From positions 1 to 64,000 of IMG/VR virus record IMGVR_UViG_3300021519_000006: DNA of 64,000 nt. The stretch is one strand, 5' to 3'. Positions 18,036 to 60,152 of this stretch are shown here, piece after piece. A program made the translations under genes and the position numbers. Each line of letters begins with the position of its first letter. Position 1 is the stretch's first letter. Below the pieces are notes generated by a model. It ran no database searches, was not told the origin of the DNA, and saw nothing but the letters and a program-made list of their open reading frames with translations. This DNA comes from a virus.

Positions 18036-19095
18036 GTAGGCTCTCCTCTGAATAGAACGTTAAGTTGCTTGCGAGTCGGGGGTCGCTTGGATTCAATTCT
18101 ACCGCTTTACTTCCGTATTGTAGGGCTTTCTCGAAATTTCCTAACCTGAACGCAGCAATTGCTGCGTAATCCCATGGAGCTGATCCCCAGGCCAACTCTT
18201 CGCATAGATACTCCAAGGGTTTATCTACTATACCTATAGCTTGTTCAGCAGCCTCAAGGCAAGCAGTCCACATCTTGTTTTCATAATAAACCTTAGCAAT
18301 ATCAACATACCCTTCCCGTCTATCGGGAGCTTCGGCACACGCCCTAGCAAACCAAGTTATTGCATCTTGATAGTCAGCCTGTAGCTTAGCTATATACCGC
18401 ATAGATGCAGCTCGTTCTGGCTTCCACACAGCTTTAGGTAAAGATAAGTGTCTTTTAAACTCTGCCTCAGCCTCTTCATATTGGCCGTAAAAAAACAACT
18501 CTCGTGCATAGTAAAACGCATTTCTATCATCATTGGGATCTTCTTTGACAGATTGTGCAAGTAAAGGCATGTAACTTGAACGAGATTTAGAGTTGTCTGC
18601 GTGGTGGTGTATTTGTAGCTTAGTCCATCCCTGAGTCTCATCAATACGGTCCGTGACCATTACTTCGTGTACTGGATGCTTCCATCGGTACCCGTGACGA
18701 GAGTGAATCTTATCTCCGCCGTATTGAAGGCCAGGGGTTCCGTCTTCTTTCCAATTCCAAGTGTATTGATACCTAGGTCTTGTCCACTTTTCAACGTGGG
18801 CTTTTTCTAATTCTTCACGCCAACCGGGAAGTAATACTTCATCCATATCTAAAGCAATGCAATAATCAACGTCATCTGGGATAAAGGCAAGAGATGCGTT
18901 GCGGGCGTCATCAAAACGCCAAGGTTTAATAGATATCCCAACACAAACAATTCCAAGTTCTTCAGCTATTTTCCGGGTGTTATCGGTAGATCCCGTATCG
19001 GCTATAAGAAGATAATCCGCCTCTTTAGCAGAGTCATACCAGGGCTTAACGAATTGTTCTTCATTTAACGCTATTGTGTAAACAGCTACTTTCAT
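18016..19095 (-). CDS. Glycosyltransferase family 2 with TPR repeats
   Basis: VYTIALNEEQF, DTGSTD, FDDARN, DMDE (DxD); helical TPR C-terminus. Confidence 0.92.
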   Translation of the reverse strand: MKVAVYTIALNEEQFVKPWYDSAKEADYLLIADTGSTDNTRKIAEELGIVCVGISIKPWRFDDARNASLAFIPDDVDYCIALDMDEVLLPGWREELEKAHVEKWTRPRYQYTWNWKEDGTPGLQYGGDKIHSRHGYRWKHPVHEVMVTDRIDETQGWTKLQIHHHADNSKSRSSYMPLLAQSVKEDPNDDRNAFYYARELFFYGQYEEAEAEFKRHLSLPKAVWKPERAASMRYIAKLQADYQDAITWFARACAEAPDRREGYVDIAKVYYENKMWTACLEAAEQAIGIVDKPLEYLCEELAWGSAPWDYAAIAAFRLGNFEKALQYGSKAVELNPSDPRLASNLTFYSEESLRGHNNL

Positions 19096-27451: not shown

Positions 27452-29523
<2,072 letters not shown>

Positions 29524-44336: not shown

Positions 44337-44522
44337 CTAATCTTGCGATATGTCCAAAAGTTTAGCAACCGCCCCACGTTCTGTAAGGGCTTGAGCGTTT
44401 TTATTGTAGTGATGGTGACAAAAGGCCAATTCCCCAGTTTTAAGGAGGACAACCGCATATGCTCTAGCAGAGCACTGGTCACATTGAACCCGTCCCGCCG
44501 CCGTCTCCAGAGCCTGCTCCAT
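44337..44522 (-). CDS. Small Zn-finger protein of a type common in Actinobacteria
   Basis: CDQCSARAY...GELAFCHHH; start placed at MEQALE. Confidence 0.7.
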   Translation of the reverse strand: MEQALETAAGRVQCDQCSARAYAVVLLKTGELAFCHHHYNKNAQALTERGAVAKLLDISQD

Positions 44523-47229: not shown

Positions 47230-47796
47230 TTAAGCCTCTTGTACGTATGTATGGATTTCTCCACCTGAATAGATGTCGTGCTTGACAGCGACCTCGATTG
47301 CACGCCTCAAAGCTTTTTCGGCGGCCTCGGGTGTATTTATTTTTGAGAAGTTCAGGGCTTCTAGTGCTCCCAGTGCAATGTCTCCTCCACTACCAGCGTA
47401 GTAGACGTTACGTGCTTCTCTATCCCAAGAGTAGTCATTAAAGATTGGGTAGATCACTCCGCGGACAGAGACAAGTAAATTGCTGTCGTGGAAAGCTGCA
47501 TCGCCATCTTCCTTACCTTCAAAGCCGGAATCCTGAAAAACTTTACGTAGAGAGGGAATAAACTTCTTAGTCATGAATACATCTAACTCTTCAGTTGCAC
47601 GAGGCTTAGGAGGAGTCCAACCAAACTGTGCAATGTTTCCACCTCTAGAAGCGCCGGAGACAGCTATCAGTACACCATTGTTATTTACGATCTTATGAGT
47701 TGCAAGATCCATATAACGTCCGTCTTCATCTGATGCACGAGAGTCGCATCCTATGACGGACCACCCATTTCCTTGGATTGCGGCAAGCGTTGTCAT
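47230..47796 (-). CDS. Ntn-hydrolase, proteasome beta / HslV-like Thr peptidase
   Basis: N-terminal MTT, DSR, HKI, AGSGG, DIYSGG motifs. Confidence 0.88.
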   Translation of the reverse strand: MTTLAAIQGNGWSVIGCDSRASDEDGRYMDLATHKIVNNNGVLIAVSGASRGGNIAQFGWTPPKPRATEELDVFMTKKFIPSLRKVFQDSGFEGKEDGDAAFHDSNLLVSVRGVIYPIFNDYSWDREARNVYYAGSGGDIALGALEALNFSKINTPEAAEKALRRAIEVAVKHDIYSGGEIHTYVQEA

Positions 47797-47829: not shown

Positions 47830-48279
47830 TTAACGTTGATGTAAAGCTTGACGGAACTCTCCGTCTTTGGTTCTAGGTAGTTCATCAGCTGCCTTGCTAG
47901 CTAACTCGTAGTAGCCCCAATCATCTAATCCAGATAATTTTAGGTACTTCCCTGTGGAGTCAGTTGCTTTTAGATCTTTCCACATTGCATATGGGACATC
48001 TGGATATACACACCAGGTAAAGTCCCAGAAAATGATTACCAATGTCTGAGTCTTAGCGTTGTAGCCTAGCTTTCTAGCTCTAGGACGATTCAAATTAGTA
48101 GTTGCTGCATCGATATCCTCGTACTCAGAGCCAAAATCCTCTGAATAAGCAGTTTTCCCGTCCTTTGGACCAAATTCATCATAAGAATTAGCTGATCTAC
48201 CGGCTTTAAAGGCTGCTAACTCCTCTGAATCGGCATTCTGAGACCAAATTCCGCCGTTATTGCTGTTGATGTCCGCCAT
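47830..48279 (-). CDS. KTSC-domain protein
   Basis: LGYNAKTQTLVIIF...YPDVP...W..LKATDSTGKY. Confidence 0.8.
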   Translation of the reverse strand: MADINSNNGGIWSQNADSEELAAFKAGRSANSYDEFGPKDGKTAYSEDFGSEYEDIDAATTNLNRPRARKLGYNAKTQTLVIIFWDFTWCVYPDVPYAMWKDLKATDSTGKYLKLSGLDDWGYYELASKAADELPRTKDGEFRQALHQR

Positions 48280-48589
48280 TTGGTCAGTTTAGAGCCTGGC
48301 TACTGCCCTGTATCGCTCAATACCCCCCGATTTTTGGTGATGAGGTGATGAGGTGACGACCCAAAAGGTACATTTGATCCGGCAACAACAATTTCCCGAC
48401 CAAATTTTCCCGAACTCTCATCATAGTTTGGCCACTGTAAAGCTATATATAGGTCCAACTATCAGTCTCACCTGCCGAATTCCTGTGTTTCCTGTGTTCT
48501 AAGGGTGGGGGGTGTCGTTTTGATTTGTCTAAGGTTGTAATCGCAAAGAGCGAGCAAGAATTAGAAAGAGATTCTTTCCTCTTACGGTC

Positions 48590-48634
48590 GCTGACGCTGG
48601 CGCGCTCGCTGTAGTTCGATTCTACAGGTCAGCA
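48590..48634 (+). ncRNA. Truncated tRNA-like element (acceptor-like stem plus T arm)
   Basis: GCTGAC/GTCAGC stacked on CTGTAG-TTCGATT-CTACAG; no anticodon arm and no CCA. Confidence 0.55.
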
Positions 48635-48687
48635 CGCCGTAAGGCTAGGGGCAGGATAGTCCTGTCCCTATGTTCAAAGGATACTAA

Positions 48688-49191
48688 ATGTCTACATTGA
48701 CACTAAGTATGAAGGAACAACTCGCGCCAGTAGTGGCTATCGAGTTGGCAGTTCTCAACGAGGGTGCTACAGCCTTCGGGATAGGCAAGGCGAAGGGTAT
48801 CTTCAAGACCTACGCTGATGCGACCTTTTATGATGTGTATGACCACATCACAAAGCAATCAGCCTCAACAGCAACCGCTGTTCTGTCTGGTCTCATCTCA
48901 GCACGCTACAACGTGCCTATCTCGTTCCTCGTACCTATGCAAGACGACCTTGCCGAGGTATGGAGCACGTTCGACGCCACAACAGGCGACACCGAAGTTA
49001 TGTTCGGTCGTCTGGTAGCACTCAAGGCTCGTCTCAAGGACGAGCGTGAGACAGCAGAAGCATCTGCTATTGCAGATGGTTCACTAGCGTCATCAAAGAC
49101 CGTGACGCTAGTCAAGTCCCTTGGTAATCTCAAGACCAAGGGTGTTACATTCACCGAAGAGGAAAAGGCTGCGATTATCGCTGCCTTGTAA
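48688..49191 (+). CDS. First gene of the plus-strand arm, helical hypothetical protein
   Basis: AAAGGA RBS; 167 aa; codon choice like highly expressed genes. Confidence 0.85.
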   Translation: MSTLTLSMKEQLAPVVAIELAVLNEGATAFGIGKAKGIFKTYADATFYDVYDHITKQSASTATAVLSGLISARYNVPISFLVPMQDDLAEVWSTFDATTGDTEVMFGRLVALKARLKDERETAEASAIADGSLASSKTVTLVKSLGNLKTKGVTFTEEEKAAIIAAL

Positions 49192-49194
49192 TCG

Positions 49195-49458
49195 GTAATG
49201 GGTAGTGGCGGGGGCTCTATGTCCCCGCCTCTATCTATGTCCATAGACATCTGTGGGCATAGATAGGGAGCAACTATCCCTATGGTAAGGGGAATCCGAA
49301 TCAACTCGGTACGCAGGTGTATGGAAGTGAGGAGATGGTCAAACATCTCGCAGTAAAACTCCAACTGTTACACCGCCCCCGTAAGAGAAAGAATCTCGTG
49401 TCTTCTGTCGAAGAGACCCTAGTCAGCCCTTCAGCTAGTACTGGCTAGGGTCTCTTTT
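49195..49458 (+). ncRNA. Candidate structured RNA ending in a terminator hairpin
   Basis: Multiple stems whose deviations are G-U on the plus strand; closing GTAATGG/CTGTTAC. Confidence 0.6.
49411..49458 (+). terminator. Intrinsic terminator
   Basis: AAGAGACCCTAGTCAG/CTGGCTAGGGTCTCTT then TT. Confidence 0.7.
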
Positions 49459-49594
49459 CACATCCAAGCATAACTCTCATCATAGATAGATAACTCTCAT
49501 CATAGTTAGTTAGGCTACTACAAATCTCACAAGTTGAGACACCGAGAGTACAAGCAGGTCTGGGCTAGGGTGGGACTGCTGTTAGCAGATAGTC

Positions 49595-58220: not shown

Positions 58221-60152
58221 ATGTATAACGAAGAGTTAGACGATGGTTATCGTTACAGGGAAGCCAGAGATGAAGAAGCACAAGAACGTGCTGTCCGACT
58301 CAATGCACTGTGCCGTGTTTACGAACAAGGTGACCGTGTATTAACTGGCGACCCAGTCATCGTAAATGTGATGCCGGATGGCCCCGCACCAGCGTGGTCA
58401 GACGGTGCCGCTATCTACATCAATCTTGATCAGATTGAGGACATGGACCTTGAGACATTAACTCAAGTTACTGGCCTCAACTATCATGAGTTAAGCCATC
58501 ACTTGTACTCGCCCCGTAAGGGAACGACGTTCATGCAATGGGTTATAGAAAATGGTCAGATTCAAGCTACAAATATTCTCGAAGATCAACGTATCGAAAC
58601 ATTATTTGTAGCACGCTATCCAGCTGTTGCTTCATACCTTACAGCCATGGTTTCTAGGTGGTTAGGTAAAGATGAAGATGGCATGCATGGTAACTACATC
58701 TGTATACGCGGACGTCGTTACCTACCTGTTGAGATTCGTCAAGCGTTCCGTGATGAGTTCGCTTTCCCAGATGTAATCCCAGCAGCTATTGACATCATCG
58801 ATCAGTATCGTCTCTTAGCATTTCCTCGTGACTATGACAAGGGCAAGGAACTGATTGAGCGATTCACCAATGAGGTACTGATTCCTATGGGCATCAAAGA
58901 TGACCACACACATCAGGGTGGTCCCAATGGTTGCGGTCAACGCATGCCCGTAAGTAAGGGTCGACCTGAGCCCGGCAAAGCTCAAGAGAAAGACTCTGAT
59001 CGTGCCAAGGGTATGGGTACAGCAGAAGCTCCGTGGTATCCAAAACCTAAGCAAGCTCCAACACAAACACCCACCAACGACGCCGATAAACCAATTGGCA
59101 GCAATGATGATGGTGATGGTGATGGTGATGGTGATGATCCATATAGCAAACCGTTACAACCTATTACTACAGAACAAGCACTAGATATACGCGACAAGGG
59201 TGTAGACCATACGCCAGCGTCTACCGCAGGTTCTGGTCACGTTGATAGTCTCGGCGGTATTCCTAAGAATATCAATGACATGCTCAACGATGCTATTGAT
59301 AATGTCCTTGCACGCAAGGATGTTCAAGCAGACATCAAAGCCAAGCAGAAAGTTATTGTTGGTGGAGATGGTAAGCATGATGACATTACTAAGAAGGGTA
59401 AGTTCGACAAGACTTCCGTTCCCAACGAATCCATCATTGCATACCGCAAATTCGCTCAAGAGTTACAACGTTTACGCGATGACATGGAACCTACGTGGGA
59501 TAAAGAAACACCCACCGGTAGGCTTAATGTTCAACGTGTTATCCGAGGCTGTGAGATTGATGCAGCCTTCGATCGTTGGGATGAGGGCGACGATGGATGT
59601 GATATTGAGGCCGTCATCCTAGTGGATCGATCAGGATCAATGTCCAGTCAACAGAACGATAAGAAGGCTTCCATCGCCTGCTGGACTATCAAGCGTGCTC
59701 TTGAGTCAATTCAAGCGCCCGTTACTGTCTATGCCTTTGATGACGCAGCTGAGGTTGCTTACTCCCGCAAAGAGTTAGCAGACAAGACTCAGTACAAGTT
59801 CATCTACGGCAACGGCGGTACTGAACCATACCCAACACTGTTAGTTGCAGAGCAGTTACTTATGTCTTCTCGCAAGAAGAACAAAATGCTGTTCATGGTA
59901 ACTGATGGTGTGTTCGACTCCCAGAAAAATGATGTAATTATTGAGCGTATCGGTAAGCGTGGCATTCTCACAGCCATGACGCTGATTATGACTGACAGTG
60001 ATTACAAATACTATGTGGATGATCGAGGTCAAGATCCAAAGCAATTCCATCATAATGCTGAGGTTTTTGCTCGTATCAACAATGCCAGTGACTTACTGCC
60101 GTTTGCTAAGCAAGTAGTTACATCCGCAATCAAAAAGCGTGGAAGACGCTAA
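58221..60152 (+). CDS. vWA (CobT-like) partner with N-terminal HExxH motif
   Basis: HELSH, NILEDQRIE, MIDAS DRSGSMS, GGT, TDG. Confidence 0.9.
   Translation: MYNEELDDGYRYREARDEEAQERAVRLNALCRVYEQGDRVLTGDPVIVNVMPDGPAPAWSDGAAIYINLDQIEDMDLETLTQVTGLNYHELSHHLYSPRKGTTFMQWVIENGQIQATNILEDQRIETLFVARYPAVASYLTAMVSRWLGKDEDGMHGNYICIRGRRYLPVEIRQAFRDEFAFPDVIPAAIDIIDQYRLLAFPRDYDKGKELIERFTNEVLIPMGIKDDHTHQGGPNGCGQRMPVSKGRPEPGKAQEKDSDRAKGMGTAEAPWYPKPKQAPTQTPTNDADKPIGSNDDGDGDGDGDDPYSKPLQPITTEQALDIRDKGVDHTPASTAGSGHVDSLGGIPKNINDMLNDAIDNVLARKDVQADIKAKQKVIVGGDGKHDDITKKGKFDKTSVPNESIIAYRKFAQELQRLRDDMEPTWDKETPTGRLNVQRVIRGCEIDAAFDRWDEGDDGCDIEAVILVDRSGSMSSQQNDKKASIACWTIKRALESIQAPVTVYAFDDAAEVAYSRKELADKTQYKFIYGNGGTEPYPTLLVAEQLLMSSRKKNKMLFMVTDGVFDSQKNDVIIERIGKRGILTAMTLIMTDSDYKYYVDDRGQDPKQFHHNAEVFARINNASDLLPFAKQVVTSAIKKRGRR

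Follow-up and report, generated by a model that had tools for sequence, protein, structure and literature searches.

A tRNA top-half mimic beside a long-range stalk in the leader of a phage gene

The mRNA leader of the first rightward gene of an uncultured lake phage contains a 45-nt element (48590-48634, + strand) that reproduces the top half of a tRNA, with an acceptor-like stem stacked on a T arm. The comparison of related sequences presented below indicates that this is a real mimic, kept by selection, and the analogies with known systems suggest, as the most likely role, a signal at which host tRNA enzymes would cut or dock. The weight of the case for a selected mimic is carried by the covariation of the paired positions together with the coincidence of several tRNA features in the same short RNA.

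Setting and architecture of the leader

The window, that is, the whole stretch of DNA that was analysed (64,000 nt), covers the initial 64 kb of an IMG/VR virus record of 99.9 kb, which CheckV rates complete and which has a G+C content of 44 %. The leftward genes of this phage, including those for the large terminase and an HslV-like peptidase, extend up to position 48279, the rightward genes start at 48688, and the mimic is located in the 408-nt divergent gap between the two gene sets. The terminase is closest to those of the Streptomyces phage BRock and its kin (approximately 52 % identity), which are the nearest cultured relatives by this protein, so that the host is likely to be an actinobacterium. 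The sole tRNA gene in the genome, for tRNA-Asn (88408-88480), does not encode the CCA end. No sigma-70-like promoter was called in the region 48000-49000. The features of the leader and of the adjoining gene are the following:

48500-48516, + strand: invariant 17-mer TAAGGGTGGGGGGTGTC, upstream of the leader and identical in five related sequences
48564-48578, + strand: small local hairpin GAAAGA-GAU-UCUUUC, predicted in the isolated leader; it overlaps the 5' strand of the stalk and is mutually exclusive with the stalk
48568-48587, + strand: 5' strand of the long-range stalk, pairing with 49379-49397
48590-48595, + strand: 5' strand of the acceptor-like stem, GCUGAC, pairing with 48628-48633
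48596-48608, + strand: 13-nt linker GCTGGCGCGCTCG, containing TGG, in place of the D arm, the anticodon arm and the variable loop
48609-48627, + strand: T-arm-like hairpin, CTGTAG (48609-48614) and CTACAG (48622-48627), with the loop TTCGATT (48615-48621)
48628-48634, + strand: 3' strand of the acceptor-like stem, GUCAGC, and an unpaired discriminator-like A (48634); no encoded CCA
48636-48645, + strand: GCC-GUAA-GGC mini-hairpin with a GNRA loop, invariant in all relatives
48646-48670, + strand: 11-bp hairpin, capped by a UAG loop and separated by 5 nt from the ribosome-binding site
48676-49191, + strand: ribosome-binding site AAAGGA (48676-48681) and the 167-codon gene (48688-49191), from the list of open reading frames
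49379-49397, + strand: 3' strand of the stalk, preceded by a conserved 3' structured RNA and closely followed by a long hairpin with UUUUC after it

The initial annotation had described a 6-bp stem, GCTGAC/GTCAGC, continuous with a 6-bp stem that closes a T loop, and this arrangement is indeed present: there is zero gap between the two stems on the 3' side, which yields 12 stacked pairs, and the closing pair of the T loop is G-C, the counterpart of G53-C61 in tRNAs. The mimic combines tRNA-type features, namely the 12-bp stack, the UUCRANN loop, the G53-C61-type closure and the unpaired discriminator. The 13-nt linker with its TGG and the lack of an anticodon arm, also reported in that annotation, are read directly in the sequence, and the GCC-GTAA-GGC hairpin and the 11-bp hairpin follow at 48636-48645 and 48646-48670. 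The mimic is positioned 54-98 nt upstream of the start codon, and its segment AGTTCGATTCT matches the motif of the plant t-elements, GGTTCRANYCC, in 9 of the 11 positions. The minimum free energy (MFE) of the leader corresponds to z = -3.3, and the MFE structure of the leader taken in isolation is an irregular 9 + 6 + 6 bp hairpin with approximately 21 stacked base pairs. Other leaders in the early region of the same phage are also highly structured.

The 167-codon gene downstream, which is assumed here to be an early gene, encodes a protein with 33 homologues (59-100 % identity), none of them named, the top one being the window's own protein and the other ones having 59-87 % identity. This protein has no PHROG family, and the only Pfam hit, to the GASH family, was below threshold (E = 0.0076, 15.9 bits as compared to the cut-off of 27). 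The AF2 model of the protein is all-helical (pLDDT 86), and the Foldseek search of the PDB with this model produced no match at E ≤ 0.001. The invariant 17-mer upstream of the leader is a candidate promoter or operator element, or a candidate 5' part of the RNA, and is also found in a distant relative, L025, approximately 195 nt upstream of the first gene. In L025, which encodes a remote homologue of the 167-aa protein (25 % identity), the leader is different, being structured as well but containing no T loop; hence the mimic is not required for this gene family. Judging from these sequences, the mimic is a replaceable module of the leader rather than a constant component of the expression of the gene. 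When the whole leader of L025 was searched for a stalk, long duplexes scored no better than those in shuffled sequences.

Covariation of the mimic and the long-range stalk

The relatives for which DNA was available are four contigs, L002 (the same IMG/VR contig as L008, L015 and L020), L016, L017 and L018; scans of viral, metagenome and genome contigs, whether the query was a single protein, the alignment or a DNA pattern, did not retrieve any further relatives. Among the window and the relatives, the mimic occurs in three sequence variants. The check for covariation in relatives that the initial annotation had proposed came out in favour of the fold: in the five related sequences, all 60 of the 60 pair cells are standard pairs, and four pairs have changed on both sides, one of them in the acceptor stem and the other three being consecutive pairs of the T stem. 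In the control, where the partners were slid by 1-3 columns, only 23-35 % of the cells were paired, with no double changes at all. One acceptor pair varies among the relatives between U-A, U.G and C-G, and the acceptor stem of L016 contains both U.G and G.U intermediates. Because these wobble pairs of L016 would be A.C mismatches on the opposite strand, the mimic RNA can be assigned to the + strand.

Positions 1-5 of the loop (UUCGA) and the closing G-C pair are invariant, and position 6 is U or C, as in tRNAs; three stem pairs next to them swap, whereas the loop consensus and its closure stay the same. Given that the whole leader is approximately 87 % identical among the three variants, conservation of the loop alone is not significant. 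The linker has a constant length of 13 nt and a variable sequence (GCUGGCGCGCUCG, GCACGGUGCUUCG, GCUGGUGCGCUCG) in which GG is always present. Farther downstream, one pair of the 11-bp hairpin changes from G-C to A-U and another one from G.U to A-U, and a single A.C mismatch is seen in L017 and L018. The compensatory changes in both stems of the mimic argue that its fold is maintained by selection and, with the T-loop consensus kept, they bear out the initial structural reading of the element as a minimal tRNA top-half mimic. A composite descriptor (a G-TTCRANN-C hairpin of at least 5 bp, an abutting Watson-Crick stem of at least 6 bp and a linker of 3-60 nt) was run against the real 99.9-kb genome, where it detected one site, the mimic, and against dinucleotide shuffles, 7 of the 400 of which contained matches. 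At a large scan size, some real hairpins fit the T-loop consensus by chance.

The whole one-gene unit that includes the mimic is surrounded by a long-range stalk, a newly recognised context that had been missed within the window by the initial annotation. The stalk duplex consists of 19 bp and one bulged C, with the strands approximately 810 nt apart, and encloses the mimic, the 167-codon gene and the conserved 3' structured RNA, the mimic starting 2 nt inside. The register of the alignment shifts between the two leader types, and the stalk was assessed by per-sequence duplexes. By this approach, the duplex is retained in all four relatives: in L016, the change of a leader U to G is matched by a distal change of A to C, without a matching change in the proximal look-alike GCCGUAAGG; the L002-type stalk carries a compensated one-base indel; and a U-A pair has become U.G in L017 and L018. 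About two duplex turns long, conserved and covarying, the duplex has the sequence properties of an RNase III stalk. The hairpin downstream of the stalk was not called in a consensus terminator scan.

When the leader is folded in isolation, part of the same sequence is engaged in a local 9-bp outer stem, in which bases of 48636-48645 pair with 48580-48588. Two pairs of this local stem are lost in L016 without compensation whereas the distal strand of the stalk does compensate, so that the long-range stalk is favoured over the local stem, and the GCC-GUAA-GGC hairpin is, therefore, free to form. The same change bears on the possibility that the local 9 + 6 + 6 bp hairpin is a plain RNase III-type processing or stability hairpin, in the style of the T7 early genes, with an incidental loop. 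The approximately 21 bp stacked in the isolated-leader MFE structure would suit such a role, but the comparative data from L016, where two local pairs are broken and compensation is distal, favour the stalk, and the 13-nt bulge and the T-loop consensus would be left unexplained; we consider this possibility very unlikely.

With the stalk included in the model (cofold), the L002-type sequences are predicted to fold into the stalk, the mimic and both downstream hairpins, GNRA and 11-bp. For the window, a pairing between the linker and ACGCCG (48634-48639) is predicted to be 1.4 kcal/mol better than the mimic, and the same pairing is slightly favoured in L016 too. The invariant segment ACGCCGUAAGG has three possible partners, which are CUUACGG in the leader, the segment itself and YGGYG in the linker. 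The ribosome-binding site is free in every predicted fold. Another pairing, between upstream CGAGC and GCTCG of the linker, had been suggested by the initial annotation; it does exist in the window, but the corresponding pseudoknot finds no support in the L002-type relatives, where the duplex energy is no better than that obtained with shuffled linkers.

This multiplicity of predicted pairings is relevant for an explanation in which a cis-regulatory leader adopts several states and has the T-loop-capped helix as one of its structural modules, and the likeness to tRNA is convergent and is not read by tRNA enzymes. The module would act as a stable cap, offer a docking site to the GNRA loop or bind a protein of the phage or the host, for example, the 167-aa product itself. 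Several observations agree with such a role: the three partners of ACGCCGUAAGG, the difference of only 1.4 kcal/mol that separates the mimic from the alternative fold in the window, the highly structured early-region leaders elsewhere in this genome, and the presence of a different structured leader in the same slot of L025. Nevertheless, a purely structural module does not explain the 12-bp register, the G53-C61-type closure, the UUCGA loop or the tRNA-Thr-type acceptor with its A discriminator, and the ribosome-binding site is sequestered in none of the predicted folds. We regard this explanation as possible although somewhat unlikely.

Candidate identities and proposed function

The tRNA-like features raise the question of membership in known RNA families. 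As anticipated in the initial annotation, the element escapes ARAGORN, which called 0 tRNAs in the window, and the search of the mimic region against Rfam produced no match at E ≤ 10, including the tRNA (RF00005) and tmRNA (RF00023) families. The mere 13 nt that separate the 5' acceptor strand from the T stem cannot accommodate the D and anticodon arms, and the mimic is accordingly not a tRNA. The tmRNA model RF00023 had no match at E ≤ 10 in the entire genome either; the same search does detect the RNAs of phages BRock (64.5 bits) and DS6A (43.2 bits) that consist of the tRNA-like domain (TLD) only. The mimic contains no G3.U70 in a GGG acceptor, its own acceptor beginning with GC and having U-A, U.G (with the U on the 5' side) or C-G as the third pair, and there is no P2 helix between the linker and the T stem. 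With P2, G3.U70 and the model match all missing, the mimic is not a member of the TLD family. The remaining candidate from the initial annotation, the bacterial Y RNA YrlA, was likewise without an Rfam match, and the topology is different in that the helix stacked on the T arm runs on to the flanks of the transcript. A Pfam search of ten window proteins, nine of which come from the early region, identified neither the TROVE domain nor any tRNA-related domain. A vWA protein is encoded at 58221-60152, with a weak match to VWA_2 only.

The acceptor stem can be compared with those of actual tRNAs. Out of 31 phage tRNAs, the one that best matches the L002-type acceptor, GCCGAC/GUCGGC, is tRNA-Thr(GGU) from phage BRock, with identity in six pairs. 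This acceptor is also identical to that of E. coli thrU, the A discriminator included; the window acceptor, GCUGAC, has 5 of the 6 pairs in common with thrT. Threonine identity includes acceptor-stem pairs (PMC9976931). The tRNA-Thr-type acceptor can be considered a lead for charging, although no proof of it. The resemblance to tRNA-Thr, along with the perfect T arm, could also point to a decayed tRNA gene or to a tRNA-derived attachment-site core, which is, however, extremely improbable: both stems compensate, the linker is fixed at 13 nt, and the covarying 5' acceptor strand would be without a role in an attP core. Furthermore, a degenerate 25-mer encompassing the T arm and the 3' acceptor strand of both variants is found in none of the 185,579 species-representative genomes of GTDB. 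Kinship with the phage's own tRNA-Asn was rejected as well, given that both the acceptor and the T arm differ.

Among the related phages, our RF00023 search identified in BRock an unannotated 81-nt match (c97140-97220) that scores 64.5 bits, above the 47-bit cut-off, and consists of the tRNA-like domain alone, with a GGG acceptor that includes G3.U70, a D-loop analogue, a short P2 and a T arm. Homologues of this RNA, approximately 80 nt long, are present in at least eight Streptomyces phages (BRock and seven others) and share a P2-capping hairpin with the RNA of mycobacteriophage DS6A, the score of which (43.2 bits) is below the same 47-bit cut-off. The DS6A RNA has been published, and a similar molecule inhibits tmRNA, perhaps via titration of SmpB (PMC4131195, PMC11915505). 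In the window phage, no TLD-only RNA was detected with Rfam. The linker of the mimic resembles, over a short stretch, the D-loop analogue of the TLD (12-14 nt, with GG and then UYCGAC) inasmuch as it is 13 nt long, has GG at positions 4-5 or 5-6 and ends with CUCG or UUCG.

By analogy with these RNAs, the mimic could be a decoy, either excised or attached to the message, for SmpB, with the trans-translation block that has been proposed for TLD-only RNAs, for abortive-infection toxins that modify the acceptor end or for enzymes that act on T loops. The occurrence of TLD-only RNAs in actinophages, the inhibition of tmRNA (perhaps by titrating SmpB) attributed to the DS6A molecule (PMC4131195, PMC11915505), the lack of an Rfam-detectable TLD-only RNA in a phage whose relatives BRock and seven other Streptomyces phages possess one, and the similarity of the linker to the D-loop analogue in length, position of GG and YUCG tail are all compatible with this idea. 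On the other hand, the mimic has no P2, G3.U70, GGG acceptor or Rfam tmRNA match, and one copy in an mRNA leader would make a weak stoichiometric sponge. Lacking an anticodon arm, the mimic cannot bait anticodon nucleases. A decoy role therefore appears unlikely to us.

The function that we tentatively prefer, with less than even confidence and largely by analogy, is that of a t-element-like RNase P/Z processing signal on a transcript bracketed by the stalk. Under this scenario, the tRNA-maturation enzymes of the host would read the mimic as a pre-tRNA, with RNase P cutting at 48589/48590 and/or RNase Z cutting on the 3' side of A48634. These tRNA-type cuts, possibly preceded by cleavage of the long stalk in the manner of RNase III, would separate the message from the 5' strand of the stalk and from the mimic. 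The shortened message would start with the GNRA hairpin and the 11-bp hairpin, shielding its 5' end, and the 45-nt RNA may persist after its excision and acquire CCA. The tRNA geometry, the covarying stalk 2 nt away and the tRNA-Thr-type acceptor all favour a role in processing. When a tRNA gene does not encode CCA, its addition by the host is implied once the 3' end has been trimmed, commonly via RNase Z, and the CCA-less tRNA-Asn gene of this phage accordingly suggests a host that uses an RNase Z-type 3' route. With respect to precedents, RNase P is known to cut hairpins that consist of an acceptor stem, T stem and T loop, as well as the phage M3 and C4 RNAs and some mRNAs (PMC11143913), and, in the case of cox1, the 5' end of the mRNA is generated by RNase Z under the direction of a t-element located in the leader (PMC1920247).

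Several observations go against the processing role. The mimic encodes no CCA, and the pairing of its 5' flank, in either the stalk or the local stem, reaches position -3. A paired 5' flank tends to hinder both RNase P and RNase Z. In addition, the fold that involves the linker and ACGCCG is 1.4 kcal/mol better in the window, and only three variants are available for comparison.

An extended version of the processing scheme would have the stalk-bracketed unit function as a maturation cassette from which RNase III, RNase P and RNase Z free a CCA-tailed, tRNA-Thr-type RNA of 45-48 nt. This RNA would act in trans as a decoy, for example, against SmpB and trans-translation or against acceptor-end-modifying abortive-infection toxins, and would represent the freshwater-actinophage counterpart of the TLD-only RNAs. 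We consider this version quite improbable.

Comparison with known systems

The closest parallel to the proposed processing signal is provided by the t-elements of plant mitochondria, which are tRNA-like folds with a conserved T arm and an incomplete cloverleaf that are located in mRNA leaders (Forner et al. 2007, PMC1920247). These elements are thought, and in the case of cox1 have been shown, to direct RNase Z or RNase P, and the excised element can be stable and can gain non-encoded C residues (PMC1920247). The mimic and the t-elements have in common a T-arm-bearing, tRNA-like fold within an mRNA leader. However, the t-elements are organellar and derive mostly from recognisable tRNA genes, whereas the mimic belongs to a phage, is far more reduced at 45 nt, has a 13-nt linker in place of three arms and is situated beside a long-range stem.

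The mimic is also comparable to the synthetic hairpins of McClain, Guerrier-Takada and Altman, in which an acceptor stem and T arm constitute the minimal unit recognised by RNase P (reviewed in PMC11143913). Both contain a 12-bp coaxial stack of acceptor and T stems with a T loop. The synthetic hairpins are continuous and have a single-stranded 5' leader and a 3' RCCA, in contrast to the mimic, which has a 13-nt bulge, no CCA and a paired 5' flank. If tRNA enzymes do read its fold, the mimic would be a natural minimal substrate of RNase P and RNase Z by which a phage shapes its mRNA.

Excision of tRNA shapes by RNase P and RNase Z, which defines the ends of the neighbouring RNAs, is also the principle behind the mascRNA/MALAT1-type modules and the tRNA punctuation of mitochondrial transcripts. 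These systems are eukaryotic or organellar and involve full or nearly full cloverleaves, unlike the mimic. Shaping of RNA by tRNA-like folds is documented in plant mitochondria and in eukaryotic long non-coding RNAs; in the literature, no catalogued phage example was found, and Rfam contains no matching family.

The stalk has parallels of its own. A duplex of approximately 20 bp that flanks a functional RNA is the classic entry point for RNase III, as in the stalks of rRNA operons, where tRNA-type cuts follow, and in the sites of the T7 early mRNA. The phage stalk is similar to these in duplex size and differs from them in that it encloses a protein-coding gene with a structured leader and trailer. 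The presence of the mimic beside a covarying stalk that spans a whole gene suggests a maturation of a protein-coding phage transcript that would resemble the maturation of rRNA operons.

Finally, the TLD-only RNAs of actinophages share with the mimic an acceptor stem, a T arm and the lack of an anticodon arm, with a D-loop analogue of 12-14 nt with GG that the linker may resemble, and they come from a related phage lineage and a related likely host phylum. They are distinguished by the GGG acceptor with G3.U70, the capped P2 and scores of 43-64 bits with the Rfam tmRNA model, and they are free-standing genes among tRNA genes whereas the mimic resides in an mRNA leader. Should the excised decoy prove true, the mimic would be the smallest natural tRNA-like RNA. 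Taken together, the mimic and the TLD-only RNAs of Streptomyces phages suggest that phages possess a broader range of pared-down tRNA mimics, most of it unannotated, with relevance for the expression of phage genes and possibly for counter-defence.

Divergent intergenic region

Inverted copies of the motif GGGGGGTRT lie in the 408-nt gap between the leftward and rightward genes, one upstream of each divergent gene (window 48322-48330 and 48500-48516), and the rightward copy is part of a 17-mer (48500-48516) that is identical even among relatives whose first-gene proteins are only 25% identical. Both copies are candidates for divergent promoters or operators. In the gap, no sigma-70-like promoter was called.

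Compared with L002, a related contig, the window carries a 94-nt insertion (48335-48428) bearing the repeat GGTGATGAGGTGATGAGGTGA, on either side of which TTTTGG and CCAAAA are found. L025, a distant relative, also has this repeat in its divergent gap, in reversed orientation with respect to the window, and the module may be invertible or mobile and operator-like. Direct repeats AACTCTCATCATAG are located on both flanks of the one-gene unit, the copy at 48413 being within the insertion absent from L002:

48413-48426, direct repeat AACTCTCATCATAG
49472-49485, direct repeat AACTCTCATCATAG
49492-49505, direct repeat AACTCTCATCATAG

Flanking genes and the conserved 3' stretch

The first leftward genes code for two proteins:

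47830-48279 (-), KTSC-domain protein (Pfam, E 1.7e-8)
47230-47796 (-), HslV/proteasome-beta-like peptidase (PHROG 1040, E 1e-25)

The 167-aa product of the rightward gene (48688-49191) has 33 homologues, none of them named, no PHROG family and no significant Pfam match. Its AF2 model is all-helical and confident (pLDDT 86), and a Foldseek search against the PDB (E<=0.001) returned no match.

From the stop codon of this gene to the 3' strand of the 19-bp long-range stem extends a stretch of ~185 nt (49195-49378). Because this stretch is more conserved than the coding sequence itself, shows nearly no variation in its initial 130 nt and contains hairpins (GGCGGGG/CCCCGCC and others), its sequence points to a structured 3' RNA.

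tRNA genes and phage-encoded tRNA-like RNAs

The only tRNA gene of the window phage, as of its relative G001, is tRNA-Asn(GUU), compared with ~30 tRNA genes in the BRock relatives; CCA is not encoded in the window phage copy:

whole genome 88408-88480 (-), outside the window, tRNA-Asn(GUU)
G001 44343-44415, tRNA-Asn(GUU)

BRock and no fewer than seven further Streptomyces phages carry, amid their tRNA genes, an unannotated mini-tmRNA of ~80 nt that consists only of the tRNA-like domain (TLD). Its locations include:

L031:1501-1581 (-) = KX925554.1 c97140-97220, BRock TLD-only mini-tmRNA
OR725497.1 17977-18055, TLD-only mini-tmRNA
NC_070781.1 88030-88108, TLD-only mini-tmRNA
PV654398.1 83298-83375, TLD-only mini-tmRNA
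OR725492.1 about 18154-18232, TLD-only mini-tmRNA

In these RNAs the GGG acceptor carries G3.U70. They also have a D-loop analogue, a T arm and a P2 helix, which covaries and is capped by GAAAGCCGCACGCGGAAC. In GiJojo, the match carries the annotation 'hypothetical protein'. The Streptomyces phage RNAs are homologues of the TLD-only RNA already published for mycobacteriophage DS6A (28478-28560).
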